Below, piece by piece: positions 11,586 through 25,866 of a DNA stretch of 64,000 nucleotides. Made by a program: the position numbers and the translations under genes. Every line of letters begins with the position of its first letter. The stretch's first letter is position 1. The notes under the pieces are model-generated. The model was not told where the DNA came from. It saw only the letters and a list, made by a program, of their open reading frames with translations, and did no database searches. This DNA is from Verrucomicrobiia bacterium (GTDB taxonomy: Bacteria; Verrucomicrobiota; Verrucomicrobiia; Limisphaerales; UBA11358): positions 849 through 64,848 of the forward strand of contig DATNHI010000106.1 of NCBI GenBank assembly GCA_035605035.1, in the 5' to 3' direction.

Positions 11586-11755
11586 GCCCGAAGTCCGAAT
11601 ACCGAAATCCGACCCGTCCTCCGTAGCAGCACTGCGGAGGGTGGAAAGAAATCCGAATTGCGAAATCCGATCAAGTGAGGCGAGCACTCACGAGCATTTC
11701 GGGCTTCGGGTTTCGGCCTTCTTTTGGAATTCGGATTTCGGGCTTCGGATTTATC
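11586..11755. repeat. composite heptad-periodic inverted repeat (atccgaa / ttcggat units) with a nested cctccgtagcag..ctgcggagg hairpin
   Basis: Left side cccgaagtccgaataccgaaatccga...atccgaattgcgaaatccga. Right side cttcgggtttcgg...ggaattcggatttcgggcttcggattt. Confidence 0.8.
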
Positions 11756-12787: not shown

Positions 12788-12965
12788 GGGTGGCAGGAAA
12801 TCCGAAATCCGAATGCCGAAATCCGAAAGAAATCCGAATACCGAATTCCAAAAAAGCGCGGCGCACAATCACTGGCATTCCGGGTTTCGGATTTCGGGCT
12901 TCTTTCGGGTTTCGGATTTCGAGCCTCGGATTTTGGGCATCGGGTTTCGGATTTTGAGTTCATGG
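12788..12965. repeat. heptad-periodic inverted repeat filling the cydA-cydB spacer
   Basis: aatccgaaatccgaatgccgaaatccgaaagaaatccgaataccgaa ... ggtttcggatttcgggcttctttcgggtttcggatttcgagcctcggattttgggcatcgggtttcggatttt. Confidence 0.85.
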
Positions 12966-14419: not shown

Positions 14420-15784
14420 ATGCTTTCGGCAATGAAACTTCTGGTCATCGGTTCGGGCGGACGCGAACACGCGCTGGTGTGGAAACTCGCGCAGTCACCG
14501 CACGTCACCCAACTGTGGTGCGCGCCGGGTAACGCTGGAATCGGACAGGAAATAGTGGGACAGGCTTCCAGCCTGTCTGTGGCAACGAACAGGCAAGATG
14601 CCTGTGCCACGGCACGGGCCGCAAAAAATTCTCCCCTTGTCGAATGCGTCAATATTTCCGCCGGAGATTTGCCAAAGCTTCTCGCGTTCGCGCAGGAGAA
14701 GAAAATCGAACTTACCGTCGTCGGCCCGGACAATCCGCTGGCGCTAGGCATCGTGGATTTATTCCAAAAAAACGGCCTGCGAATCTGGGGTCCGAACCGG
14801 AAGGCCGCGCAGTTCGAGTCGTCCAAGGTTTTCTCGCAGCGGTTCGTGGAGAAATACGGCATCCCAACGGCGCGCGCCGGGACGTTTTCGGTGGCAGGAC
14901 CCGCCAAGGCCTTTGCCGCGTCACTCGGCGGCAAATGCGCCGTGAAAGCCGACGGCCTCGCGCTCGGCAAAGGCGTTCTGATTTGCACGAACATGGCAGA
15001 AGCGAACAAGGCGATTGACGAAATCCTGGTCGGCAAAGCCTTTGGCGCGGCGGGCGCAAAGATTGTCATCCAGGAATTTCTGGAGGGCATGGAAATTTCG
15101 CTGCACGCGCTGTGCGACGGTAAAACGGCGAAGCTTTTTCCGACGTCACAGGACCACAAACGCGCGCTGGACTGTGATAAAGGTTTGAATACAGGCGGCA
15201 TGGGCACCTATTCGCCGACGCCGTTCCTGAGCGAAAAGGAATTGGCGGAGACGAGCCGCAAGATTCTGGAACCGTTCACGCGTGGTTGCGCGGCGGAGGG
15301 TATTGATTTTCGCGGCATTCTATATCCCGGCATCATGCTCACGAAGTCCGGCCCGAAGGTGCTGGAATTTAACGCCCGGCTCGGTGACCCGGAAACGCAA
15401 GTCTATCTGCCGCGGCTGGAAAACGACCTGGTCGAACTGCTCGACGCCAGCGCCAGCGGCACACTCGATAAAATGGAATTAAAATGGAGTCCGGTGGCGG
15501 CGGTTTGTGTGGTCATGGCCAGCGGCGGTTATCCCGGCAGTTACACGAAGGGCCAGCCCATCCTGGGTCTGGCCGAAGCGGCGAGATTGCCGAACACAAA
15601 AGTATTTCATGCTGGAACGGCATTGAAGGACGGTCAAATCGTGACGAACGGCGGCCGGGTCCTTGGGGTGACCGCGCTCGGCAAGGATTTGAAATCCGCA
15701 CAGGCGGCGGCCTATGCGGCAGTTGAAAAAATCCATTTCGACGGCGCGCATTTCCGCCGCGATATCGCGGCGAAGGCGCTTTGA
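14420..15784 (+). CDS. purD: phosphoribosylamine--glycine ligase with an in-frame palindromic insertion
   Basis: MKLLVIGSGGREHALVWKLAQSP (likely start 14432)...CAPGNAG...ATP-grasp core...GGRVLGVTALG. Confidence 0.9.
   Translation: MLSAMKLLVIGSGGREHALVWKLAQSPHVTQLWCAPGNAGIGQEIVGQASSLSVATNRQDACATARAAKNSPLVECVNISAGDLPKLLAFAQEKKIELTVVGPDNPLALGIVDLFQKNGLRIWGPNRKAAQFESSKVFSQRFVEKYGIPTARAGTFSVAGPAKAFAASLGGKCAVKADGLALGKGVLICTNMAEANKAIDEILVGKAFGAAGAKIVIQEFLEGMEISLHALCDGKTAKLFPTSQDHKRALDCDKGLNTGGMGTYSPTPFLSEKELAETSRKILEPFTRGCAAEGIDFRGILYPGIMLTKSGPKVLEFNARLGDPETQVYLPRLENDLVELLDASASGTLDKMELKWSPVAAVCVVMASGGYPGSYTKGQPILGLAEAARLPNTKVFHAGTALKDGQIVTNGGRVLGVTALGKDLKSAQAAAYAAVEKIHFDGAHFRRDIAAKAL
14559..14605. 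repeat. two small hairpins inside the purD CDS (in frame)
   Basis: gacaggc-ttcca-gcctgtc and acaggca-aga-tgcctgt. Translated as GQASSLSVATNRQDACAT in the loop after CAPGNAG. Confidence 0.8.
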
Positions 15785-15816
15785 CCGCGAAATTTTATTA
15801 ATGACCCGGAACGTGC

Positions 15817-17370
15817 ATGTTGGTTGCCCGGCCACTTAATGCCACGATGCTCTCCCGACTCTTCCGCCGCAAATCGCTCGACCAACTGAGTGCCGAGGCG
15901 ATAGCGCCGCAGTTTCAGCTCAAACGCGCGCTCGGGCCGGTGCACCTGACATTGCTCGGAGTGGGCGCGGTCATCGGCGCCGGCATCTTCTCTTCCATCG
16001 GCGACGCGGTGGCGGGTGGGCAGAATCATCCCGGCGCCGGCCCGGCAGTCATTGTGTCGTTTGTGTTGTCGGCGATTGCGTGTGCCCTGGCGGGATTGTG
16101 CTACGCGGAGTTTGCCGCCATGGTGCCGGTGTCCGGTTCGGCTTATACCTATACTTACGCCACGTTGGGCGAACTGGCCGCGTGGATCATCGGTTGGGAT
16201 CTTATCCTCGAATACGCCATCGGCAACGTCGCCGTGGCGATCTCGTGGTCGGCTTACTTTCAGGAACTGCTGCGCGGGCTGGGCCTGCACTGGCCGTTAT
16301 GGCTGGGCGTGGATTTTCGTTCGGCACTGCAGGCCGCGAAGCAGATCGCCGCGGCCAAGGCCGCCGGCATTGATCCGGCGACCCTGGATGCAACGGTGCG
16401 AGAGGCAGCCCAGGCGTTTACGGACGCGCCGCGCCTGGCTGGCGTGCCGCTCATCTTCAACTTACCCGGGTTCGGCATTGTGATGCTGTTGACCTGGATT
16501 CTGGTCATCGGCATCCGCGAAAGTTCCTGGTTCAATTCGGCGATGGTGATTGTGAAGCTCGTCATCCTGGCTTTTTTCATGACTTTGGGCGCGTTCTACG
16601 TGAAACCGGAAAACTGGACGCCATTTGCGCCCAACGGCTGGGCCGGCATCACCAGCGCCGCGGCGATCATCTTTTTTGCTTACATTGGTTTTGATGCGGT
16701 TTCAACCGCCGCCGAGGAAACCCGCCAGCCGCAGCGCAACGTGCCAATCGGCATTCTCGCCAGCCTCGCCGTTTGCACGGTCATCTACATCGTGGTGGCG
16801 GTGGTGCTGACCGGCCTCATACGGTGGGACAAACTGGGCACGGCCGAGCCGCTGGCTACGGCATTTTCCGGGCTGGGGCTGAACTGGGCCGTAGGCATTA
16901 TTTCCGTCGGCGCGCTGGTGGCGAACACGTCGGTGCTGCTCGTCTTTCAGTTCGGGCAACCGCGCATTTTTTTCAGCATGGCGCGCGACGGCTTGTTGCC
17001 GGCCTGGGCGGCAAAAGTTCATCCCCGGTACCGCACACCGCACGTGACGACCATCCTGACCGGTGTGCTGGTCGCGGGCTTTGCCGGGATTACGAACCTC
17101 AACGAAATGCTGGAGCTTTGCAACATCGGTACGCTGTTTGCTTTCGTGCTGGTGGCGACCGGCATCCTGATCCTGCGGCGCACGGACCCCGACCGCCCGC
17201 GATCGTTTCGCACGCCGCTGTGTCCGTGGGTGCCGTTGGCGGCCATCCTTTCCTGCGGCTGGTTGATGCTCAAGTTACCGTGGAAAACCTGGTGGTGGTT
17301 CTTTGTCTGGCTCGCCGTCGGGCTGCTGATTTATTTTCCCTACAGCATGCGGCGGAGCCGGCTCCGGTGA
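15817..17370 (+). CDS. APC-family amino acid permease (cargo behind purD)
   Basis: About 12 hydrophobic segments. GVGAVIGAGIFSSIG and FFAYIGFDAVSTAAEE motifs. Alternative start 15847. Confidence 0.8.
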   Translation: MLVARPLNATMLSRLFRRKSLDQLSAEAIAPQFQLKRALGPVHLTLLGVGAVIGAGIFSSIGDAVAGGQNHPGAGPAVIVSFVLSAIACALAGLCYAEFAAMVPVSGSAYTYTYATLGELAAWIIGWDLILEYAIGNVAVAISWSAYFQELLRGLGLHWPLWLGVDFRSALQAAKQIAAAKAAGIDPATLDATVREAAQAFTDAPRLAGVPLIFNLPGFGIVMLLTWILVIGIRESSWFNSAMVIVKLVILAFFMTLGAFYVKPENWTPFAPNGWAGITSAAAIIFFAYIGFDAVSTAAEETRQPQRNVPIGILASLAVCTVIYIVVAVVLTGLIRWDKLGTAEPLATAFSGLGLNWAVGIISVGALVANTSVLLVFQFGQPRIFFSMARDGLLPAWAAKVHPRYRTPHVTTILTGVLVAGFAGITNLNEMLELCNIGTLFAFVLVATGILILRRTDPDRPRSFRTPLCPWVPLAAILSCGWLMLKLPWKTWWWFFVWLAVGLLIYFPYSMRRSRLR

Positions 17371-17384
17371 GCCAAGTCGTGAAA

Positions 17385-17456
17385 TCGGTCAACGGAAGAA
17401 AAATCCATTTCGACGGCGCGCATTTTCGCCACGACATCGCGGCGAAGGCATTTTGA
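17385..17456 (+). pseudogene. ghost purD 3' end, copy 1
   Basis: ...KIHFDGAHFRHDIAAKAF* versus real ...KIHFDGAHFRRDIAAKAL*. 49/54 nt identical over the terminal block by hand count. Confidence 0.9.
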
Positions 17457-17469
17457 ATTGCGAAAAAAA

Positions 17470-19185
17470 TTACTGTTCGGCAGCTTGCGGCGGAATATTT
17501 GTATAACTGGCGTCTTCATGCACCCGATTGCCGGCAGGGTCAATGATTGTTGCGGTGACAAACACGAGCGTGTGCCGATTAAGAGAGTTTGTTTTGCTGC
17601 CATCAAGTTCTGCAAGCGCGGCGTCTGTTTGAACTTGATTGTCCTTCAGTCCAAAAACCAGCGTCTGATCGTCAAAAAGATTTACTGAATTCGTTGTTGA
17701 TTGCACACGAAATTGAGGCGACACCGTTGGCACGTCAATTTCCTGCCCGGCTGAATTATAAGCTGGTGTCGTGTTTGTAGATTGAGCGTAACCCAAAAAT
17801 TCAACCACCGAAGCGATGACAGGCAATTCGATGGTATAACTGTCAGGCAGCACGCGCGGTATCGCGTCGAGAACCGGTCCCGTTTCAACATTTTCAGTTT
17901 GAGGAACAATGCTGGAAGTGCCATTTGTTTCTTGAAGGCAAAAATTGGTCACGACAGAAATAATCTGTGTTGCCCGCATTTGAACTTGGCGTCCGCTGGT
18001 TAACACCACTTCTGGTTCGGCGAGAGTTTCAACATCATTGCGTGAGCGTAATTGCTTTAACGCAATACGGAAGTTTTCGTCGGTAAGAATACCGGCACTG
18101 GTCGAATCATACCAACCGGCAGATACGTCTTTCGGCATCGTCAGAAATCTTGCTTTGATGTGGATTTGCGGGATGGACGAATTGGTATCCGGACTAAAAC
18201 GCAAATGTGACGATGTTTGCAACGGGCGATTTTTTTCGGCGAGTTCGTCAAGCTGTCGCCGCAAGACGCCGGTTTCACCGCGTAATTTCAGCAATTCGTC
18301 AAATTGGTCTTCTGATAATTTTTTTGCATCGCCAACTTGAGCGAGACGATTTGAATAACTTTCGTTGTCCGTTTGCAATTGCGCGATTTGTTGGTTCAAC
18401 GACGTTTGCTGTTGTTGCAATGCGCCGATTTGTTTTTGCAATTGAATCGAGTAAATGCCGCTGCCAATTGCGGCGACGGCAAATCCAGCGATGAGAATTT
18501 TGTGAATCATAGTCATTCCGAGGGTTGTAGTTGTTAAGGCGACGGTGGTTGAAATTGTAGCGGCCAATCCAACCGGTGCGGATTGGACGGCGTTGGCGGA
18601 AATCAGAACCGCCAGTCCGCTCGCGCCAATCGTCACGTTACGTTTCGATAAAAATTCGCGCAGCCGCTCCACGGCGCGGCTGACGCGCTTTTGCGCGGCA
18701 TCGTCGCTCACGCCGAGCGCCCGGCCAACGGCGCGGAAATCCTGGTTCCGGAAAAAACGGAGCAACAAGGCTTCGCGGTCTTCTTCGCCGAGGCTGTCGA
18801 GCGCTTCATCCAGCGCTGGCCGGATTTGTTCCCAATCTGCGGAAGGTCCGGCATTGGAAAGAAATTGATTCATGGCTTGCCTTTCGTTTGCGAGCCGGCG
18901 CCGGTCATCGCGCAAATGCTTGAGCGCCGCATAGCGCGTGGCACGGTGTAGCCAGCCGGCCAGTGAAGCCTCCACCGCCAGCCGTTCGGCCACCGATCCT
19001 GCTTTGCGCGCCAGGTCCACAAAAACTTTTTGAGCAATGTCTGCCGCCAAATCGGCGGATTCCACCTGCCGCAAGGCGGCGGAATACACGAAGTCCGTGT
19101 GGCGCGTGACGATTTCGCGGAACGCGGCTTCGTCACCGCGCTCGGCGTAGTCGCGGAGCAGTTGGACGTCGGATTTGTCGCTCAC
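17470..19185 (-). CDS. ECF sigma domain / TM / coiled-coil / secretin-like C-terminal fusion protein (paralog A)
   Basis: N-terminal sigma r2/r4 (FREIVTRHTDFVYSAALRQV...LLLRFFRNQDFRAVGRALGVSDDAAQKRVSRAVERLREF). TM segment MIHKILIAGFAVAAIGSGIYSI. Q-rich coiled coil. C-terminus LAEPEVVLTSGRQVQMRATQ...GPVLDAIPRVLPDSYTIELPV...HTLVFVTATIIDPAGN resembles the secretin domain pattern. Confidence 0.75.
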   Translation of the reverse strand: MSDKSDVQLLRDYAERGDEAAFREIVTRHTDFVYSAALRQVESADLAADIAQKVFVDLARKAGSVAERLAVEASLAGWLHRATRYAALKHLRDDRRRLANERQAMNQFLSNAGPSADWEQIRPALDEALDSLGEEDREALLLRFFRNQDFRAVGRALGVSDDAAQKRVSRAVERLREFLSKRNVTIGASGLAVLISANAVQSAPVGLAATISTTVALTTTTLGMTMIHKILIAGFAVAAIGSGIYSIQLQKQIGALQQQQTSLNQQIAQLQTDNESYSNRLAQVGDAKKLSEDQFDELLKLRGETGVLRRQLDELAEKNRPLQTSSHLRFSPDTNSSIPQIHIKARFLTMPKDVSAGWYDSTSAGILTDENFRIALKQLRSRNDVETLAEPEVVLTSGRQVQMRATQIISVVTNFCLQETNGTSSIVPQTENVETGPVLDAIPRVLPDSYTIELPVIASVVEFLGYAQSTNTTPAYNSAGQEIDVPTVSPQFRVQSTTNSVNLFDDQTLVFGLKDNQVQTDAALAELDGSKTNSLNRHTLVFVTATIIDPAGNRVHEDASYTNIPPQAAEQ

Positions 19186-19242
19186 TCACTTATTAAACAA
19201 CCGCGCCAGGAAAAATCCGACAAAGTTTTTCAAAATTTCCTG

Positions 19243-19357
19243 CGTGACGGCTCGGGCGAAAGATCTGAAACCCGCGCAAGCCGCCGCCTGCGCGGCTGTG
19301 CCGAAAATCCATTTTGACGTCGCGCATTTCCGCCGCGACATCGCGGCGAAGGCGTTG
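19243..19357 (+). pseudogene. ghost purD 3' end, copy 2
   Basis: KDLKPAQAAACAAVPKIHFDVAHFRRDIAAKAL versus real GKDLKSAQAAAYAAVEKIHFDGAHFRRDIAAKAL. 46/50 nt over the terminal block; stop lost. Confidence 0.9.
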
Positions 19358-19362
19358 AGGTG

Positions 19363-20988
19363 TTATTGACGTTTTGGAAAATCCCGGCCATCCACAACCG
19401 TCGGCGTCACAAACATCAAGAGGCTTTTTGGCCCAGCCGGCATATTTGTGGATCCAGGCATCCATCCATCGTCGGCCATTTCTGTTGCCATGACAACCGT
19501 CTGGCCGGGAGATAATGTCACTTGATTTGTTAATTGAATTGTCTGCACGTCCGGCTGCGAAGGATCGCCGGTCAATTGGTTTAATTTCGCTCCGAGATTC
19601 AAATTAAAAGTAGAGGAGTTGGTTGAAAAATAGGGCTTCACATCCAGGTTGACGCCGATATTCGTGTAATTCACGCTGGCATTCGCGTTTGTGCCCTCGG
19701 CGGAAAGCACGGGAAACGCCTTGGTCACGGAAATTTGAGCTTGTTCTCCATTGATGGTAACTATTCGCGGTGCGCTGATGACATTGGCGTCACTAGCCCC
19801 TTGCAACGCTTCATTGATGACCTTGAATTGCTGTCCGGTCAGTAAGCCGGTTTTTACACCGTGCGCGTCCGACTTCCACCCAACTCCAAGAACTTGCAAA
19901 TTTTCGGTGGGAAGAGAAACAAATTGTGCCCTCAAGAGAATCTGAATCTTTTCCACTTCCGGCACACTGTTCGTCTCCGTTTGCGCCGCGACCGGTAAAG
20001 CATTTTGCTGCCGCCTCAATTGCGTCATTTCGCCGCGCAATCTCAGAAGTTCCGTCTCGTTGGCGCGCAATTGTTTGTTTTCCTGTTGAAGTGACGCCAG
20101 TTGATTTGTCGCCTCGTCACGCTCCTGTTGCAATTGCTGGATTTGTTCGGTCAACGTCGTTTGTTTTTGACGCAGTGAATGAATTTGGTTTTGCAGTTGA
20201 AACGCATAAATGGTCGCACCAACAGCGGCGGCACCCAAGATGATGAAGAGTGTTTTTTGGATTGTGGTCATGGCGATGGCTTTGGTGGCGGCAATTACGG
20301 CTGAAGTGTGAACAGCGGCTCCGGCCAGAACAGCGGCGGTTGAAATGCTCGCAGCCAGCCCAACCGGCGCGGCTTGAACGGCGTTGGCGGAAATCAAAAC
20401 CGCGAGTCCGCTCGCGCCGATGGTCACGCTGCGTTTCGAGAAAAATTCGCGCAATCGTTCGACCGCTCGGCTGACGCGCTTTTGCGCGGCGCCTTCGGAC
20501 GCGCCCAAAACTTCACCGACTTCGCGCAGATTTTTGTTTTCAAAATAGCGGAGCAGAATCGCGCTGCGGTCAGCATCGTCAAGCGTGTCCATGGCTTCGT
20601 CGAGCAGCGGCTCGATTTCGAACCAGACAGGCGGGACGCCTGTGCCACTTTCGGTCGCATTCATATTGTTCATCTCCACGGCGATTTGCTCGCGCAATTG
20701 GCGGCGCGATTCCTTTCGGATTACGTCAATCGCGGTTCGGCGCGTGACGGCGTAAAGCCACGGCGTCAGGGAACTGACAGGCGGGACGCCCGTGCCACCA
20801 ATCTTGCCGGCGTCGCGCGCCAGATCGGCGAAGACGGATTGCGAAACTTCCTCAGCCAGTTGCGGTGAGCGGACTTGCCGCAACGCGGCGGAATGAACCA
20901 GATCCAGGTGCCGCCTGACAATTTCGGCGAAGGCGTCCTGTGAATTTTCCCGCGTGTATTGCCGTAGCAAATCCAAATCGCTTGTCAT
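19363..20988 (-). CDS. ECF sigma domain / TM / coiled-coil / secretin-like fusion protein (paralog B)
   Basis: Start chosen at MTSDLDLLRQYTRENSQDAFAEIVRRHLDLVHSAALRQV (ATG at 20988). The segment VSRAVERLREFFSKRSVTIGASGLAVLISANAVQAAPVGLAASIS is near identical to paralog A. C-terminus VISAPRIVTINGEQAQISVTKAFPV...IGVNLDVKPYF...LLMFVTPTVV is secretin-like. Confidence 0.75.
   Translation of the reverse strand: MTSDLDLLRQYTRENSQDAFAEIVRRHLDLVHSAALRQVRSPQLAEEVSQSVFADLARDAGKIGGTGVPPVSSLTPWLYAVTRRTAIDVIRKESRRQLREQIAVEMNNMNATESGTGVPPVWFEIEPLLDEAMDTLDDADRSAILLRYFENKNLREVGEVLGASEGAAQKRVSRAVERLREFFSKRSVTIGASGLAVLISANAVQAAPVGLAASISTAAVLAGAAVHTSAVIAATKAIAMTTIQKTLFIILGAAAVGATIYAFQLQNQIHSLRQKQTTLTEQIQQLQQERDEATNQLASLQQENKQLRANETELLRLRGEMTQLRRQQNALPVAAQTETNSVPEVEKIQILLRAQFVSLPTENLQVLGVGWKSDAHGVKTGLLTGQQFKVINEALQGASDANVISAPRIVTINGEQAQISVTKAFPVLSAEGTNANASVNYTNIGVNLDVKPYFSTNSSTFNLNLGAKLNQLTGDPSQPDVQTIQLTNQVTLSPGQTVVMATEMADDGWMPGSTNMPAGPKSLLMFVTPTVVDGRDFPKRQ
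20627..20793. repeat. two copies of the acaggcgggacgcc(t/c)gt hairpin inside paralog B (in frame)
   Basis: 20627-20643 and 20777-20793. Translated on the minus strand as ...SGTGVPPV... and ...GGTGVPPV.... Paralogs A and C lack them at the aligned positions. Confidence 0.8.
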
Positions 20989-21177
20989 GCTTTTGAAAGT
21001 ATATCGCCGCCGGACGACGAAATCCGACACAATTTCCCCGGTTGAATCCAGGCTCGACGGAGGCTTCCACCCTCCGTAGCAGAGCAACTGCGGAGGACGG
21101 GCGCCCCACCACTTTTCCCGGCGGCCGTGCGCAAGCATCTTTACTTTCGCCGTTTTGTCGCGCATTGTGGAGGCAGC

Positions 21178-21894
21178 ATGACACAACGTTATTTCAGGCT
21201 CTCGATTCTGGTCTTGGCCGGCGTGCTGGTGGCGCAAGTGGCGTCGTCCGCGGACACGACCAACCCGGCGCTGGCGAAGTCGGAGATTTTGGAAGGCAAC
21301 GTCGCCTATCTCCGCGTCAGCCACGTCGCCGCTGGCCTTTCGGATGAAATTGGCGTGGCCAACAGCGCGTTGACGACCACGAACAAAGTTGCCGGAACCG
21401 TCCTGGACCTGCGCTTTGCCGACGGTGACGATGCGGCGGCGGCGACCGCAACCGCAAATCGGCTGGCGGCAAAGAAGCTGCCCCTGGCAATTCTGGTAAA
21501 CGACGAGACGCGTGGCGCAGCGGTAACATTGGCAACGGCCTTGCGTGCGTCGCGGGCGGGGCTGATTTTCGGCAGCGTGCCGGCGGCGGTGAAACCGGAC
21601 ATTGCCGTCGCGGAAGACCCCGCCGACGAGAAAAGGTTTTTTGAAAATCCCTACGCGACGCCGGCCACCAACGCCGTCGCCGCGCTGTCCGGCACAAATG
21701 AATTTCTGCCCTGGGTGGACCATACCAGCGAAGCGGATCTGGTCCGTGCGAAAATCAAGGATGGCGACGAATTTGAAAATCCGCCGCCGCCGCACGCGGC
21801 GGGACCGCAAAAGCCGGTGATTCGCGACCCGGTCCTGGCGCGCGCGGTGGATTTGATCAAGGGACTTGCGATTGTCCGGGAATTCCATCCTTGA
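21178..21894 (+). CDS. secreted S41 (C-terminal processing peptidase)-like protein, probably non-catalytic
   Basis: Signal-like MTQRYFRLSILVLAGVLVAQVASSA. GNVAYLRVS...GTVLDLRFADGDD...PLAILVNDETRGAAVTLATAL aligns to the S41 core, but the SASASE serine motif is replaced. Confidence 0.5.
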   Translation: MTQRYFRLSILVLAGVLVAQVASSADTTNPALAKSEILEGNVAYLRVSHVAAGLSDEIGVANSALTTTNKVAGTVLDLRFADGDDAAAATATANRLAAKKLPLAILVNDETRGAAVTLATALRASRAGLIFGSVPAAVKPDIAVAEDPADEKRFFENPYATPATNAVAALSGTNEFLPWVDHTSEADLVRAKIKDGDEFENPPPPHAAGPQKPVIRDPVLARAVDLIKGLAIVREFHP

Positions 21895-21908: not shown

Positions 21909-24122
21909 TTGGCGGTTCGCGACTCACCTTGGACTTTGCGCGGCATGAAAACCATTCTGTTCATTTGCACCGGCAACATCTGCCGCAGCCCGATGGCCGA
22001 GGGGCTTTTTCGCCGGGCGACCGACGGACGCGGGGAATACCGCGTGCTGTCGGCGGGCCTTGGCGCGGCGAACGACCAGCCGCCGACGCCGCATGCGGTG
22101 TCGGCCATGCGCGAACTGGGCATTGACATTACCGGCCACCGCAGCCGGATGCTGACGGCGGGCCTGGCGCAAGAGGCGGATTATATTTTCGGGATGACGC
22201 GCAGCCACGTGGACACGGTCGCGCTGTTGTTTCCGGAGGCGGAGGAAAAGACCTTTTTGCTGCGCGAATTCGACGAAACGCTGGAGCCATTTGAAAAGGA
22301 CATCAGCGACCCGATTGGCAGTTCCTACGAGGTGTATGTGAACTGCCGCAACCAGATCAAGCAGGGCATCGCGTCTCTTTTGAAATTTATGGAACAACAC
22401 GAAACCCCGTCGGCCGCGCCGGCGGCCAAAGCCGTGGCGACCACAAACTTTGCGCTTGGCGCCGACCACGGCGGCTACGAATTGAAAGAGGCGTTGAAAC
22501 AGCATCTGCAGCAACGCGGCTTGAACGTCACGGACTTCGGCGCGAAATCGAAGGAGCCGGCCGACGATTATCCCGACTTCGCCCAACCCGTGGCGCAGGC
22601 CGTGGCTGGCGGGCAGGCGGAGCTTGGCCTGCTCATCTGCACCAGCGGCGTGGGGATGAGCATGACGGCCAACAAAGTGCCGGGTGTCCGGGCCGCCCTG
22701 GTCACCGACGAACCGGCGGCGGCGTTGGCCCGGCGGCACAACGATGCCAATGTGCTCTGCCTCGCCGGCAAATCCACTTCCGTTGAGGCCGGCAAAAAGA
22801 TCCTCGACGCCTTCCTCGACGCGAAATTTGAAGGCGGCCGGCACGAACGCCGCGTCCACAAGATGGAGGCCCGGCCCGTGCCGCCGCAACTCCGTCTGCA
22901 GAGCGTGGATCCGGTCGTGGCCGCCGCCATCGAGCGCGAGCGGCGGCGCCAGCAGGAAAACATCGAGCTGATCGCCAGCGAAAATTTCGTCAGTCCGGCG
23001 GTCCTGGAAGCGCAGGGTTCCGTGCTCACGAACAAATATGCCGAGGGCCTGCCGAAGAAACGCTGGTACGGCGGCTGCGAGAACATTGACACCGTCGAAC
23101 AACTCGCCATTGACCGGGCAAAGCAGCTTTTTGGCGCTGAACACGTGAATGTCCAGCCGCACTCCGGCAGCCAGGCAAACATGGCGGTCTATTTTGCCGT
23201 GCTGAAACCCGGCGATAAAATGCTGACGATGGATTTGAGCCACGGCGGCCATCTGACGCACGGGAACAAGGTGAATTTCTCCGGCAAATTTTTTGAAATT
23301 GTCCACTACGGCGTGCGCAAGGACGACGAGCGGATTGACTACGACCAGCTCGCCGCCCTGGCGCGCGAGCACAAGCCGAGGATGATCACCGTCGGCGCCA
23401 GCGCCTATCCGCGCATCATTGATTTCAAACGCATGGGTGAAATCGCCCGCGAAGTCGGCGCGTATCTGCTGGCCGACATCGCGCACATCGCCGGCCTGGT
23501 GGCGGTGGGAATTCATCCCAGCCCGATTCCGCACGCGGATTTTGTGACGACCACGACGCACAAGACCCTGCGCGGCCCGCGCGGCGGATTGATTTTGTGC
23601 CGCGAAAAAAATGCAAAGGAGATTGATTCCACCGTTTTCCCCGGCATCCAGGGCGGGCCGCTGGAACACGTCATCGCGGCCAAGGCGGTTTGTTTCCAGG
23701 AAGCGTTGCAGCCGTCGTTCAAGGCGTATCAGGAACAGATTGTGAAAAACGCTAAGGCGCTGGCCGAAGGCATGAAGCGCAACGGCTACCGTATCGTTAG
23801 CGGCGGCACGGACAATCACCTGATGCTGGTGGACGTGGGTGTGAAAGACCTCACGGGCAAGGCCTGCCAGACGGCGCTCGACGAAGCCGGCATCACAGTG
23901 AACAAGAACACGATTCCGTTTGAGACGCGCTCACCGTTCCAGGCCAGCGGCGTCCGGCTGGGCACACCGGCCGTGACGACCCGCGGCATGAAGGAACCGG
24001 AAATGGCGGCCATTGCGGACATGATTTCCGAAGTGCTGCTGGACATCAAAAACATCGAGGCGGCGCACAAAGTCCGCGAACGCGTGCGCGAATTGACGGC
24101 GAAATTCCCGCTGCCTTATTGA
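21909..24122 (+). CDS. glyA: single ORF joining LMW protein-tyrosine-phosphatase, ribose-5-phosphate isomerase B and serine hydroxymethyltransferase
   Basis: aa 13-160 [17 protein letters not shown] (LMW-PTP P-loop). aa 178-320 [13 protein letters not shown]...[23 protein letters not shown]...[10 protein letters not shown] (RpiB). aa 328-737 IELIASENF...[10 protein letters not shown]...[13 protein letters not shown] (SHMT). No stop between domains. Likely start 21945. Confidence 0.85.
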
Positions 24123-25537
24123 TTGGGCGGTGGAAAAGCCATGTGCTGTTGTTCCCAAGCGCCAAAATCACCATCAGGTTCGGCGTGCAGTTGTGCATGG
24201 CCGTCCGCGAAACCATAAACCTTGACCCATTCCCCGTTGTACAACCAGGGTTGGTTTTCCCGGACAATGATGGTGGAGCCGGGGTTGGTAATGCTTTTCC
24301 ACGATCCTTGATAAACAATTTCGAGTTGACTCAAATTACTGCGAACCGAATTTAAATCGCCGCCCAAATAGGGTGCGGCCTGATCAAAGTTCGTGGGAAG
24401 CTGATCTTCGTTGGCATTTGCATACATGATCATTCCCATCACCGATTGTTTGGCGTTGTTCATCTTGAACAGGGCGGCCTTTTCCTGTGCCGCATGCAAA
24501 TCAACCTTCTCATCTTCCGATTGCTGTTGGTTTGAGGTTGCGAGATCCGGTGAGGCACGCAGCTTCCCAAGTTCGTTTGTCCGTTGGCGAAGCATTCCCA
24601 CTTCACCCCGAAGCCGCAGCAAGTCGTTGAATTGTTCATCCGTCAGTGATTTGGCTTCGCCAACCTCCGCAAGGCGGTTGGAAAAGCCTTCGTTGTCCGC
24701 ATGCAATTGCGCGATTTGCTGGCGCAAAGACGTGTTTTCGTCACGCAATTGAGTTTGGGTTTGATGTTGAACCACCAAAGCGGTTGTCACGCCAGCCACG
24801 ACCAGCGCGCTGACGCCGAGTTTCAGTTGGGTTGCAGTCATAATTTTCAAAAGTGTAAGGGGGGTTCCTGCGCCGGCGGCAATCGAAGCAGTCGAAAGCG
24901 TCGCGGCCAGGTTTGCGGGCGCCAGTTGGACCGCGTTGGCGGAAATCACGGACGACAGCGCGGTCGCCGTCGTGATGCCGCGTTTGGCAAAAATGGTGCG
25001 GAGCTTTTCGAGCGTCCGTTCCACCCGCATCCGCGCGGCGTTTTCGTTGAGGCCAAGCTTCGCGCCGAGTTCGGCGAATTGCTGGTTCTCAAAATAGCGC
25101 AGCAAAACGGCTTCGCGGTCGGTTTCTCTCAGTTCGTGCATGGCGTCGTCCAGCACCGGGCGAACCATTTCCCAATCGGCTTCGGACCCGGGTTGGGCAG
25201 ACGGGGTGCCCGATCCGCTATTTTGAATCGGTTCACGCATAAATTTTTCCTCGCGGTCGCGCCGGCGATTTTCCGTCCGCACGATTTTCGCGGCGGCAAA
25301 GTGAGTGCTGGTATAAAGCCAGCCGGTCAACGTTTCGCGACGCGCAAGCGAACCCGCCTTGCGCGCGAGGTCGGTGAAAACAGTCTGCGCCACATCCTGT
25401 GCCAGATGCGCATCGCCGTTGACCTGTCGCAATGCGGCGGAAAAGACCAGATTGACGTGCCGCCGCACCAGTTCGGCGAAGGCGTCTTCAGAATTGGTGT
25501 TGGCGTAACAACGCAGCAGTTCGGTATCCGGCGTCAT
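24116..25537 (-). CDS. ECF sigma domain / TM / coiled-coil fusion protein with a different C-terminal domain (paralog C)
   Basis: [39 protein letters not shown]... (ATG at 25537). TM and coiled coil as in A and B. C-terminus ...[27 protein letters not shown]... is not secretin-like. 7-nt convergent overlap with the glyA end. Confidence 0.75.
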
Positions 25538-25658: not shown

Positions 25659-25735
25659 AAAAATCTCTTTGACAACGCGGTCAAGGTGCGGCATTCTAGC
25701 TGTGAGTTGACTGCGAAATTCCCTTGCCGTGTTGA
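25659..25735 (+). pseudogene. ghost glyA 3' end
   Basis: gagttgactgcgaaattccc versus real gaattgacggcgaaattccc (18/20). Reads ...[14 protein letters not shown](frameshift)PC* versus real ...[17 protein letters not shown]. Confidence 0.7.
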
Positions 25736-25866
25736 GGCTGCGCTGCCTCAGACGCTCGGTTGATGTAATCCATTTTGAACTTTTCCGGCCATCGGGCGTC
25801 CAATGCGTGACGGCCTTTCTGTCCGGCAATTGGAATCCGGTCAATCCAACCAGTTTAATTTTGTTT

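Follow-up and report, generated by a model that had tools for sequence, protein, structure and literature searches.

Serial displacement of the purD 3' end as a probable route of gene acquisition in Limisphaerales

Why should the last part of a housekeeping gene stand three times in a row, each time beside a different gene? The question is raised by the purD locus of a Verrucomicrobiia bacterium, which lies in a stretch of 64,000 nucleotides that was analysed as a whole and that we call the window. A repeat and pattern search of the window finds the purD 3' end three times on the same strand, at 15668-15784, 17399-17456 and 19242-19360, where no copies of the tail are expected by chance. A 50-nt pattern that represents the end of purD is found at 15728, 17400 and 19304 with 0, 2 and 2 mismatches, and has 0 matches in 100 dinucleotide-preserving shuffles. 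The threefold occurrence claimed in a preliminary description of the locus is hence real. Chance and assembly artefact can both be rejected, given the empty shuffles and the recurrence of the same architecture in many independent assemblies, including contigs longer than 1 Mb. We call the two copies behind the intact gene ghosts. The locus contains the following features.

14420-15784, + strand: purD (phosphoribosylglycinamide synthetase; Pfam GARS_N/A/C), the conserved core gene on the left and the proposed recombination anchor
15668-15784, + strand: the current working purD tail (T), reference copy of both repeat families, which would have come with the permease
15755-15772: an 18-nt palindrome, CGCCGCGATATCGCGGCG (codons RRDIAA), with imperfect copies at 17427-17444 and 19331-19348
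15785-17398, + strand: the putative youngest cargo (32-nt spacer, APC permease and 28 nt of 3' flank)
15817-17370, + strand: APC-family amino-acid permease gene (Pfam AA_permease_2, AA_permease, AA_permease_C)
17399-17456, + strand: ghost 1, a probable former working purD end (-55 to stop), once convergent with sigma-fusion A
17470-19185, - strand: sigma-fusion A, the putative older cargo (Pfam: ECF sigma r2/r4)
19186-19241, - strand: 5' region of sigma-fusion A with a conserved AAATCCGACAAAGTTTTT motif (+ strand spelling), up to the ghost 2 junction
19242-19360, + strand: ghost 2, probably the oldest purD end (-116 to stop position), abutting the stop of sigma-fusion B
19363-20988, - strand: sigma-fusion B, the presumed resident convergent neighbour of purD (Pfam; start refined to the ATG at 20988)
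21127-21894, + strand: S41-peptidase-like gene, the conserved flank on the right (weak Pfam Peptidase_S41 match)

The copies form two repeat families. The first is 58 nt long and consists of 15727-15784 (reference), 17399-17456 (91% identity) and 19303-19360 (86%); the second is a 111-nt pair, 15668-15778 and 19244-19354, with 79% identity. In the terminal block ghost 1 matches the true tail at 53 of 58 nt and ghost 2 at 50 of 58, which corrects the earlier counts of 49/54 and 46/50. Over the 50-nt core each ghost matches at 48 of 50 positions. Ghost 1 had been thought to start at 17385; its start is 17399, as only 11 of the 30 nt before it agree with the purD consensus and this stretch is unrelated to purD. 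Ghost 2 spans 19242-19360 (about 79% identity over 111 nt). Ghost 1 has an intact in-frame TGA at 17454-17456, and ghost 2 reads GCG TTG AGG, so that one stop codon is kept and the other lost, as first described. It is also correct that the copy nearer to purD is better conserved: ghost 1 has 5 mismatches, the distal ghost 2 has nine changes at first and second codon positions. All mismatches between ghost 2 and T are distributed 4/5/16 over codon positions 1/2/3; the two differ at 58% of synonymous (pS 0.58) and 8% of non-synonymous sites (pN 0.08). The reading of ghost 2 as part of a real small ORF (19175-19369, 64 aa) was set aside; orthologous ghosts gain non-synonymous changes and indels.

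In all three copies the palindrome folds as a hairpin of 7-9 bp on both strands. We rejected the possibility that the ghosts serve as terminators: the hairpin is not followed by a U-tract, and a scan calls no terminator at the ghosts. The folding z-scores of ghosts 1 and 2 are unremarkable.

The two ends of the locus are stable among relatives. In 80 Limisphaerales genomes purD orthologues are 75-89% identical in amino acids and cydA is always adjacent. The S41-like gene is kept to the right of the array, and in L003, L006 and L053 (we refer to relatives by such labels) it directly follows purD. Orthologues of sigma-fusion B (58-74%) adjoin the S41-like gene in most relatives, with stops often 5-57 nt from the purD stop. 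The identity profile of purD is mosaic. Over its first ~100 codons purD is 92-95% identical in nucleotides to that of the closest relative, L001, and only about 80% beyond, where the identity profile makes other relatives the closest (85-91%). Sigma-fusion A, which combines ECF sigma r2/r4 with a transmembrane segment, a coiled coil and a secretin-like domain, is likewise mosaic, its N- and C-terminal halves going with different relatives.

To which neighbour did each tail copy belong? T, the 32-nt spacer and the start of the APC gene are collinear with a ghost (b), spacer and APC gene in L080, where the APC orthologue (83-86% aa identity) is located inside the array. Ghost b of L080 is closer to T of the window than to the tail of L080 itself, and the homology between the two APC regions runs about 25 nt beyond the permease stop before it ends. 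Ghost 1, its spacer and sigma-fusion A are collinear with the true purD tail and an A orthologue (70-75%, directly opposite purD) in four metagenome contigs, L081, L082, L083 and L102, and homology to the true tails of these contigs begins exactly at 17399. Ghost 2 and the 15-18 nt past it, across the stop codon of sigma-fusion B, line up with the true tail of L064 and of L011, relatives that have only a B-type gene beside the true purD end. The 5' region with the AAATCCGACAAAGTTTTT motif is conserved before A-type genes in L080, L036, L081 and others, and its junction with the ghost recurs in L080 and L036. A metagenome scan for the pre-insertion state of this lineage, purD opposite sigma-fusion A with ghost 2 and no permease, returned nothing closer than the donor-like convergent pairs of purD and A at 70-75%.

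Each tail copy is thus a present or past working end joined to the gene on its right, which makes sigma-fusion B the likely resident. Judged by this collinearity, the displaced copies appear to be former working ends that are still joined to their old right-hand neighbours. The newest unit seems to be the one adjoining the intact purD, since ghost 1 shows less decay than its distal counterpart. The same order is found elsewhere and with other cargo: the tail and APC gene of L080 stand behind newer units, and in L020 and L036 a tail with an AMP-binding gene is internal and ghosted, behind what would be a newer tail with an A-type sigma gene.

The locus is not an isolated case. Comparison with the purD loci of relatives, suggested in the preliminary description, shows between one and four ghosts of the purD end in each of ~30 of 80 Limisphaerales species, about a third. 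Every significant copy is downstream of purD and on the purD strand. Between purD and the S41-like gene there are 0 to 4 or more genes, and the cargo is varied and unrelated from one case to the next: sigma fusions, APC permease, an AMP-binding enzyme, DUF6263, PIN toxins, NadA and glycosidases; some arrays hold only MITE-like repeats. Cassettes occur on both strands, in mixed orientation. Ghosts are 28 to ~150 nt long, with left ends from -28 to -150; the right end of homology always lies at -7 to 0, and all detected ghosts keep the hairpin end. About 10 of some 35 independent junction classes, grouped by hand, fall at -52 to -61, at the A-tract GAAAAAATCC. One and the same cargo can be found with different ghost lengths (L014 and L037; L029 and L078), and the APC gene of L080 has no tail copy on its right side. 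Nothing relevant was found in the literature on purD as an integration site of islands.

Nor is purD the only gene concerned. Three further features of the window are found at or beyond the 3' end of glyA (an SHMT fusion).

24045-24122: the true glyA end
24116-25537, - strand: a third sigma-fusion gene, converging on the true glyA end and lying between it and the ghost
25659-25737, + strand: a ghost of the glyA 3' end, upstream of rho (tblastn within the window, E=0.001)

Besides that of the window, an orthologous glyA ghost is present in 12 of 32 loci of relatives. The final ~35 nt of this ghost show almost no variation and include TTGACT-N18-TATTGA directly before rho, a pattern that clearly points to constraint at the DNA level. 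Ghosts of the purD 5' end occur in 7 of 81 loci, and control queries with cydA, the S41-like gene and the middle of glyA found none. Ghost formation is therefore not specific to one site.

We consider it fairly probable that a hotspot of horizontal transfer lies between purD and the S41-like gene and that it grows as one purD 3' end after another is displaced. The incoming DNA would stem from a related genome in which purD is followed by a different neighbour, and it would pair with the resident purD by homology. The donor purD end would be incorporated together with the donor neighbour. At its far end the new piece would be joined to the resident purD, at a point in the final ~30-130 nt; this join would be either illegitimate or the result of crossing over in a tail copy already present. 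From then on the donor tail would be the working purD end, and the resident tail would persist as an untranslated ghost on its old right-hand neighbour. Repetition would stack cassettes, the newest beside purD. A dedicated recombinase would not be required, and existing tail copies could also act as short portable homology for the deletion, excision or transfer of cassettes.

In the window, the starting state would have been purD convergent with sigma-fusion B. In a first step, a tail with sigma-fusion A and its 5' region would have joined at about -116, creating ghost 2. In a second step, a tail with the 32-nt spacer, the APC permease and 28 nt would have joined at about -55, creating ghost 1. 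This scenario retains the stack of successive single-gene insertions, youngest next to purD, that was proposed before. What finds no support is an insertion site directly behind the stop codon, as both junctions lie inside purD and the incoming DNA would have brought its own purD end.

No donor-recipient pair has been caught in the act, hence the mechanism is deduced from its end products: the repeats, the collinearity of tails with true tails elsewhere, the recurrence, the diversity of cargo and the synonymous bias described below. This concerns the enzymology, which would combine RecA-type homologous pairing with an illegitimate or second homologous join, as well as the roles of donor and recipient. 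The mosaicism of purD in the identity profile against L001 may count in favour of displacement. Other points count against it. First, junctions cluster at -52 to -61, which would not be expected if illegitimate joining were random. Second, recombination between tails that are ~20% diverged is expected to be rare. Third, ghost 2 shares its junction with the far more decayed ghosts of L080 and L036. The event should then be old, and the fresh look of ghost 2 demands an extra assumption, either gene conversion or crossing over within the ghost in the course of a later transfer.

One could also argue that the ghosts were made in place. Slippage or unequal exchange across the purD end would create a harmless spacer between tightly packed convergent genes, later insertions would land in it, and ghosts would persist as signals for the neighbour (a 3' hairpin for a convergent sigma gene, a promoter for a co-directional gene). 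We regard this as unlikely on the whole, even if some events would fit it. The ghosts of L014, L038 and L078, apparently very recent, are 98%, 94% and 91% identical to their own tails and could equally have arisen by in-place duplication. In several arrays nothing but a short MITE-like spacer separates the tail from the ghost (113 nt in L019, 135 nt in L066), the hairpin end is retained throughout, and the glyA ghost is strongly conserved as DNA and carries a promoter-like sequence.

The pattern of divergence is harder to reconcile with duplication in place. Differences between tails and ghosts are distributed 95/110/269 over codon positions 1/2/3 and are mostly synonymous, with a pN/pS of 0.25 (95% CI 0.21-0.31, n=33). 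Between true tails the value is 0.21; in-place duplication followed by neutral decay of the ghost would lead us to expect ~0.6. Part of this low ratio could be due to constraint acting on the ghosts as DNA, of the kind that is clear in the glyA ghost. Decay is seen in orthologous purD ghosts: those of the window and of L080 or L036 share only 56-57% identity in their left part, hence ghosts are not frozen elements. In the recent events of L014 and L037, true tail and ghost part abruptly a few nt before the stop and the cargo supplies new last codons, which simple tandem duplication does not predict. The missing U-tract and terminator calls also speak against the signal proposed for convergent genes. 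Finally, the closeness of ghosts to their own tails gives a mixed picture: the own tail ranks first for 7 of 37 ghosts and among the top five for 15 of 37, and for ghosts of L017 and L080 it ranks 50-74 of 80. Going by these comparisons, no single origin, in place or foreign, fits all events.

A bolder version of displacement, which strikes us as quite improbable, is that short conserved ends of housekeeping genes in Limisphaerales (purD 3', purD 5', glyA 3') are attachment sites that need no recombinase and sustain an integron-like cassette economy on general recombination alone. Homologous recombination between two copies would release the cassette that they bracket as a circle with one copy, and this circle could then enter any related genome again at the corresponding gene end. 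Junctions at the A-tract beside the palindrome would mark a preferred point of processing or crossover, or the action of an unknown enzyme.

Site-specific integration is very unlikely. Here the terminal ~55 nt of purD with the palindrome would be an attachment site, carried as a copy on each cassette and served by an integron-like or Xer-like recombinase encoded elsewhere. Such a system would account for one gene end being hit repeatedly in many lineages, for right ends of homology confined to -7 to 0 and left ends clustering at about -54, and for a palindrome in every copy. It does not account for the mixed orientation of cassettes, for ghosts that vary so much in length even with the same cargo, for the L080 APC gene without a site copy on its right, or for ghosts of glyA 3' and purD 5' ends, whose sequences are unrelated. 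The operon-like spacing between cargo and tail leaves no room for arm sites. Pfam searches found no integrase, recombinase or transposase domains in the array genes of the window and none among the best 25 of 39 families in 69 cargo ORFs of relatives. Synonymous conservation of the purD tail is 0.62 against a gene mean of 0.56 +/- 0.06, about 1 SD above. The tail is therefore not unusually conserved, no strong embedded recognition site is indicated, and we rejected a conserved DNA site within it.

The remaining alternative, raised in the preliminary description, is a tandem duplication of purD tail plus sigma-fusion in this genome followed by insertion of the permease; it could draw on the tail copy just past the stop of each sigma-fusion gene and on a 285-nt block common to both genes (74%), yet it is hardly credible, and a recent duplication is refuted, because A and B are 37-38% identical as proteins and the tails 79-91% identical as DNA, because A-type and B-type genes have closer orthologues elsewhere, each alone opposite purD, and because ghost 2 diverges from T mainly at synonymous sites, like one of two orthologous coding tails. 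An ancient duplication that founded both sigma families is conceivable and would not explain the ghosts.

Serial displacement has precedents. C-terminal displacement has been described for rhs (Jackson et al. 2009, PMC2935791) and, through homology-facilitated illegitimate recombination, for T6SS effectors of Vibrio (Kirchberger et al. 2017, PMC5361080). In rhs, cdiA and T6SS arrays, as here, a full-length gene is followed by displaced 3' fragments on the same strand, the newest proximal, each new piece is anchored where it is homologous to the conserved portion of the gene, and an integrase is not involved. For those arrays, the proposals are either a single crossover that involves a circular intermediate or homology-facilitated illegitimate recombination, and whole blocks can then move through ordinary homologous recombination. 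The purD locus differs in its anchor, a housekeeping enzyme gene, and in its cargo, an unrelated neighbour (permease, sigma factor, acyl-CoA-ligase-like enzyme, toxin-antitoxin pair) instead of an immunity gene. Its ghosts are 30-130 nt long and presumably not expressed. Where toxin loci acquire a new toxin tip, the displaced end here is the same conserved peptide: all tails encode the same purD C-terminus, and alternative toxin domains with immunity genes are absent. Hence, the locus works like a member of the displacement family and not like a polymorphic-toxin locus.

It also resembles the hotspots without mobile genetic elements that persist through recombination in the core genes at their flanks (Oliveira, Touchon and Rocha 2017, PMC5635113): core genes flank an interval of variable content, no mobile-element genes are recognised, and the mosaic profile of the flanking core gene may be a sign of recombination. 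Their model is double homologous recombination in both flanks, which is scarless, whereas each gain here leaves a duplicated gene end, so that the sequence itself shows in which order the gains occurred. With integrative elements that target and restore the 3' ends of tRNA or protein genes (attL/attR repeats, tandem islands) the locus shares direct repeats of the target end around the insert, an intact gene and the possibility of stacking. It differs from them in its single-gene inserts, variable repeat length, lack of a detected integrase, scars at other gene ends and an APC gene without a right-hand repeat in L080.

Integron arrays are similar in having ordered, mostly single-gene cassettes with partly palindromic repeats in between and the newest proximal. 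The integron reading was rejected because no intI or attI was found in the arrays and because attC boxes and a uniform cassette orientation are absent. In place of intI with attI and Pc, purD and cydA head the array, the repeat is a housekeeping coding fragment without R''/R' boxes (its core starts with AAAATCC and ends with GGCGTTTTGA, no match to RYYYAAC...GTTRRRY), and cassettes lie in both orientations, many with their own promoter region. A diversity-generating retroelement (DGR) was rejected as well: no RT was found among the array genes, and mismatches between T and the ghosts include C>T, G>A and T>C and are not adenine-specific.

Most hotspots of horizontal transfer keep no record of how or in what order their genes came. 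If ends of purD are displaced as we propose, each gain would leave a fossil purD end as a dated scar, and the order of acquisition, and partly the sources, could be read from a single sequence. Annotation can easily mistake ghosts for small ORFs or pseudogenes, and they are useful as markers of recombination breakpoints. The comparison can extend to an entire order of uncultivated Verrucomicrobia from soil and peat. In these bacteria, the logic of C-terminal displacement known from polymorphic toxin loci would extend to ordinary housekeeping genes, and our results suggest that close packing of gene ends influences which insertions are retained.

The end of purD is present three times in the window. 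A repeat search of the window placed a second copy of the last 58 nt of the gene at 17399-17456 (91% identity) and a third at 19303-19360 (86%), where the similarity to the purD end reaches 111 nt at 79% (19244-19354). The 50-nt core pattern, with up to two mismatches allowed, was found in three places only in the 64-kb window, and zero times in 100 shuffles. The preliminary description had correctly reported three copies, of which the first displaced one (ghost 1) retains the stop codon and the second (ghost 2) has lost it. It had placed the start of ghost 1 at 17385; the start is 17399, because the preceding 30 nt are unrelated to purD. The genes and copies are arranged as follows.

14420-15784, plus strand: purD (functional end, or true tail, 15668-15784)
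15817-17370, plus strand: APC-family permease gene
17399-17456, plus strand: ghost 1
17470-19185, minus strand: ECF-sigma/secretin-like fusion gene A (sigma-fusion A)
19242-19360, plus strand: ghost 2
19363-20988, minus strand: fusion gene B (sigma-fusion B), a paralogue of A
21127-21894, plus strand: S41-peptidase-like gene
24116-25537, minus strand: third ECF sigma-fusion gene, convergent with the SHMT-fusion (glyA) gene

Three collinear alignments establish what the copies are. First, the window's true tail, a 32-nt spacer and the permease start match, nucleotide for nucleotide, a ghost, spacer and permease gene of the related locus L080. That ghost is internal to the L080 array, has its stop mutated to TGG and is closer to the window's true tail than to L080's own. 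Second, the stretch from ghost 1 through a 13-nt spacer into sigma-fusion A has an unbroken match (80-85% nt identity) to four metagenome contigs of the simple order cydA, purD, convergent A, in which the counterpart is the true purD tail, spacer and A orthologue; the homology starts exactly at 17399. Third, ghost 2 and the next 15-18 nt, including the sigma-fusion B stop codon, align with the loci L064 and L011 where the true tail meets the end of a B-type gene. Taken together, these alignments show that each tail copy is a present or former functional purD end, joined still to the gene it once faced. A second displaced cargo (DNA between true tail and ghosts) is the unit of tail plus AMP-binding gene, which adjoins purD in L017, L026, L051, L063 and L070. 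In L020 and L036, this unit is internal and its tail decayed, behind a newer unit of tail plus A-type sigma gene.

Sigma-fusion A is a mosaic of two parts with different relatives. Its C-terminal part (17399-18790) is 76-85% identical in nucleotides to metagenome contigs L081-L103; for the N-terminal sigma part with the 5' region (18540-19240), the matches are to L080, L036, L020, L031 and others. A block of about 285 nt common to A and B (18543-18827 and 20334-20618) may mark the exchange point. In the metagenome contigs L084-L101, A-type genes are bracketed by two purD ghosts, one of about 30 nt beyond the stop, starting at the palindrome described below, and one upstream of the start, spanning -105 to -17 (counted back from the purD stop). 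On the purD side, up to 6 kb of flanking sequence (less on shorter contigs) holds no purD, which would mean either very long arrays or relocation of the bracketed unit.

A purD-based scan with one genome per species yielded 80 loci, nearly all from Limisphaerales (Verrucomicrobia subdivision 3) MAGs of soil, peat and fresh water; the closest purD belongs to L001 (89% amino acid identity). The conserved framework is cydA(-) purD(+) ... S41-like(+) glyA-fusion(+), and the interval between purD and the S41-like gene is the variable part. It is empty in L003, L006 and L053, holds a single B-type sigma-fusion convergent with purD in L009, L046, L052, L064 and others (stops 5-57 nt apart), and contains up to four or more genes in L062, L067 and L080. 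Extra copies of the purD end, one to four per locus, are found in about 30 of the 80 loci, and all significant copies lie on the purD strand, downstream of purD. The cargo varies by case: sigma-fusion genes, APC permease (also in L080), DUF6263 proteins, PIN-toxin modules, NadA, glycosidases, an AMP-binding enzyme (seven species), a minus-strand two-gene module (L029, L078) or, in several species, MITE-like repeats only. Two MITE-like families occupy several arrays (L001 11366-11643; L019 11294-11405; L061, L075, L078; L014, L023, L049, L109). One contains GGCGGAGGGCCGCCGCAGTCCAAGACGCTGGCGCG...GGAGTGCGCCAGTCCTCTGGCGCTTTG; the other terminates in CCGGTTGTCCCTGCCGGGACGA, abutting a ghost directly.

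For the window, we propose that the resident arrangement was purD facing a convergent B. A unit made up of a purD end and sigma-fusion A, with about 56 nt of the A 5' region, would then have joined at about -116 of the resident purD, leaving ghost 2. Later, a unit of purD end, spacer, permease gene and 28 nt of 3' flank would have joined at about -55, leaving ghost 1. The state of the ghosts agrees with this order: ghost 1 differs from the true tail by five mismatches and has an intact stop, and ghost 2 lacks a stop and is altered at nine first or second codon positions. The stacked insertions of the preliminary description were essentially right, with real repeats whose decay matches the order of gains. 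Its placement of the insertions directly behind the stop codon is not supported; the purD end itself was displaced. L080 and L036 have the ghost 2 junction too, which means that the A unit either arrived long ago or has spread. Ghost 2 has decayed far less than the L080 and L036 ghosts at this junction, a poor fit to an old event; its fresh state calls for gene conversion or for a later transfer with a crossover inside the ghost.

How did these ends arise? Differences between true tails and ghosts number 95, 110 and 269 at codon positions 1, 2 and 3 (37 pairs), third positions dominating. The corresponding pN/pS is 0.25 (CI 0.21-0.31; 33 well-aligned pairs), with 0.18 and 0.14 for the window's ghosts and 0.21 between true tails of different species. 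Orthologous ghosts do decay, the left part in the window being 56-57% identical to its counterpart in L080 or L036. The synonymous bias therefore fits best with a tail and a ghost that spent most of their divergence as working purD ends in separate genomes before a recent union. Duplication in place followed by insertion may account for some recent events: some ghosts are near-identical to their own tail (98% in L014), and such pairs may be duplications in place or within-population transfers. As a general account, duplication in place with neutral ghost decay predicts a pN/pS of about 0.6, not the value measured.

The left junctions are genuine, as only 3-11 of the 30 nt before each agree with purD. 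They range from -28 to -150, and about 10 of some 35 independent junction classes, grouped by hand, fall at -52 to -61, at an A-tract GAAAAAATCC. This clustering is awkward for the recombination model; a microhomology or processing preference is possible. Synonymous conservation in the purD tail is unexceptional (0.62 vs. 0.56 +/- 0.06), which speaks against a recognition site under strong constraint. An 18-nt RRDIAA palindrome is kept by all detected purD ghosts; any ghost shorter than the hairpin would have escaped detection. It folds on both strands, with neither a U-tract nor a terminator call found at the ghost hairpin, and is a candidate 3' end of convergent transcripts. In purD itself, nucleotide identity to L001 is 92-95% over the first ~100 codons and ~80% beyond, where the gene is closest to other species; this drop suggests recombination within purD.

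Ghosts of gene ends are not specific to the purD 3' site. Of 32 loci, 12 have a ghost of the glyA tail downstream of that gene. In the window, it occupies 25659-25737, beyond the third sigma-fusion and directly upstream of rho; the third sigma-fusion and SHMT-fusion gene ends overlap by 7 nt (true glyA end 24045-24122). This ghost differs in behaviour from those of purD: its last ~35 nt hardly vary among 12 species and include, a short way ahead of rho, TTGACT-N18-TATTGA. The ghost appears to be kept for function, the motif probably being a rho promoter, likely preserved from an ancestral glyA-rho arrangement. The glyA fusion (21909-24122) is a single 737-aa ORF joining low-molecular-weight phosphotyrosine phosphatase, RpiB and serine hydroxymethyltransferase, with one unbroken match over all three domains in many relatives. 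Upstream of purD, ghosts of its 5' end (first 18-37 codons), a mirror image of the tail ghosts, occur in 7 of 81 loci. The following adjoin cydA where DNA is inserted between cydA and purD:

L028: 6478-6531
L069: 3548-3601 and 5493-5567
L076: 9205-9279
L015/L067: 8053-8163

Control searches for ghosts from cydA, the S41-like gene and mid-glyA found none. Elsewhere in the window, cydB is flanked by a 109-nt direct repeat (80%; 11644-11752 and 12825-12933) composed of short CGGATTTCGGG-type units, whose AAATCCGA motif is found again ahead of both sigma-fusion A and sigma-fusion B (AAATCCGAC).

Together, the synonymous bias, ghost decay, ordinary tail, mosaic purD and ghosts of other gene ends point to recombination anchored by core-gene homology, with an enzymology that we infer. 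One side would be anchored through homology in purD, and the far end would be joined by illegitimate recombination or inside a tail copy already in place. Site-specific integration at the purD end, in the manner of integrons or islands, is disfavoured. The domain families listed for 69 cargo ORFs include no integrase, recombinase or transposase, cassette orientation is mixed, repeat length is variable, and the L080 permease lacks a right-hand repeat; the ordinary synonymous variation of the tail and the equivalent scars at unrelated gene ends also speak against it. Tandem duplication of a unit of purD tail plus sigma-fusion, the alternative first offered, is rejected, as A and B share 37-38% identity, and the closer orthologues of each stand alone opposite purD in other genomes.

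The anchoring logic is shared with rhs C-terminal displacement, for which a single crossover with circular intermediates was proposed (PMC2935791), and with effector displacement in Vibrio T6SS clusters, for which homology-facilitated illegitimate recombination was proposed (PMC5361080). The locus also fits hotspots free of mobile genetic elements, where turnover occurs through recombination within the core genes at the flanks (PMC5635113). The purD array is a variant of such displacement arrays and core-flanked hotspots, and the window locus is one case of recurrent, lineage-wide gene addition beside core genes. Its value is mainly that it provides a readable record of serial gene gain.
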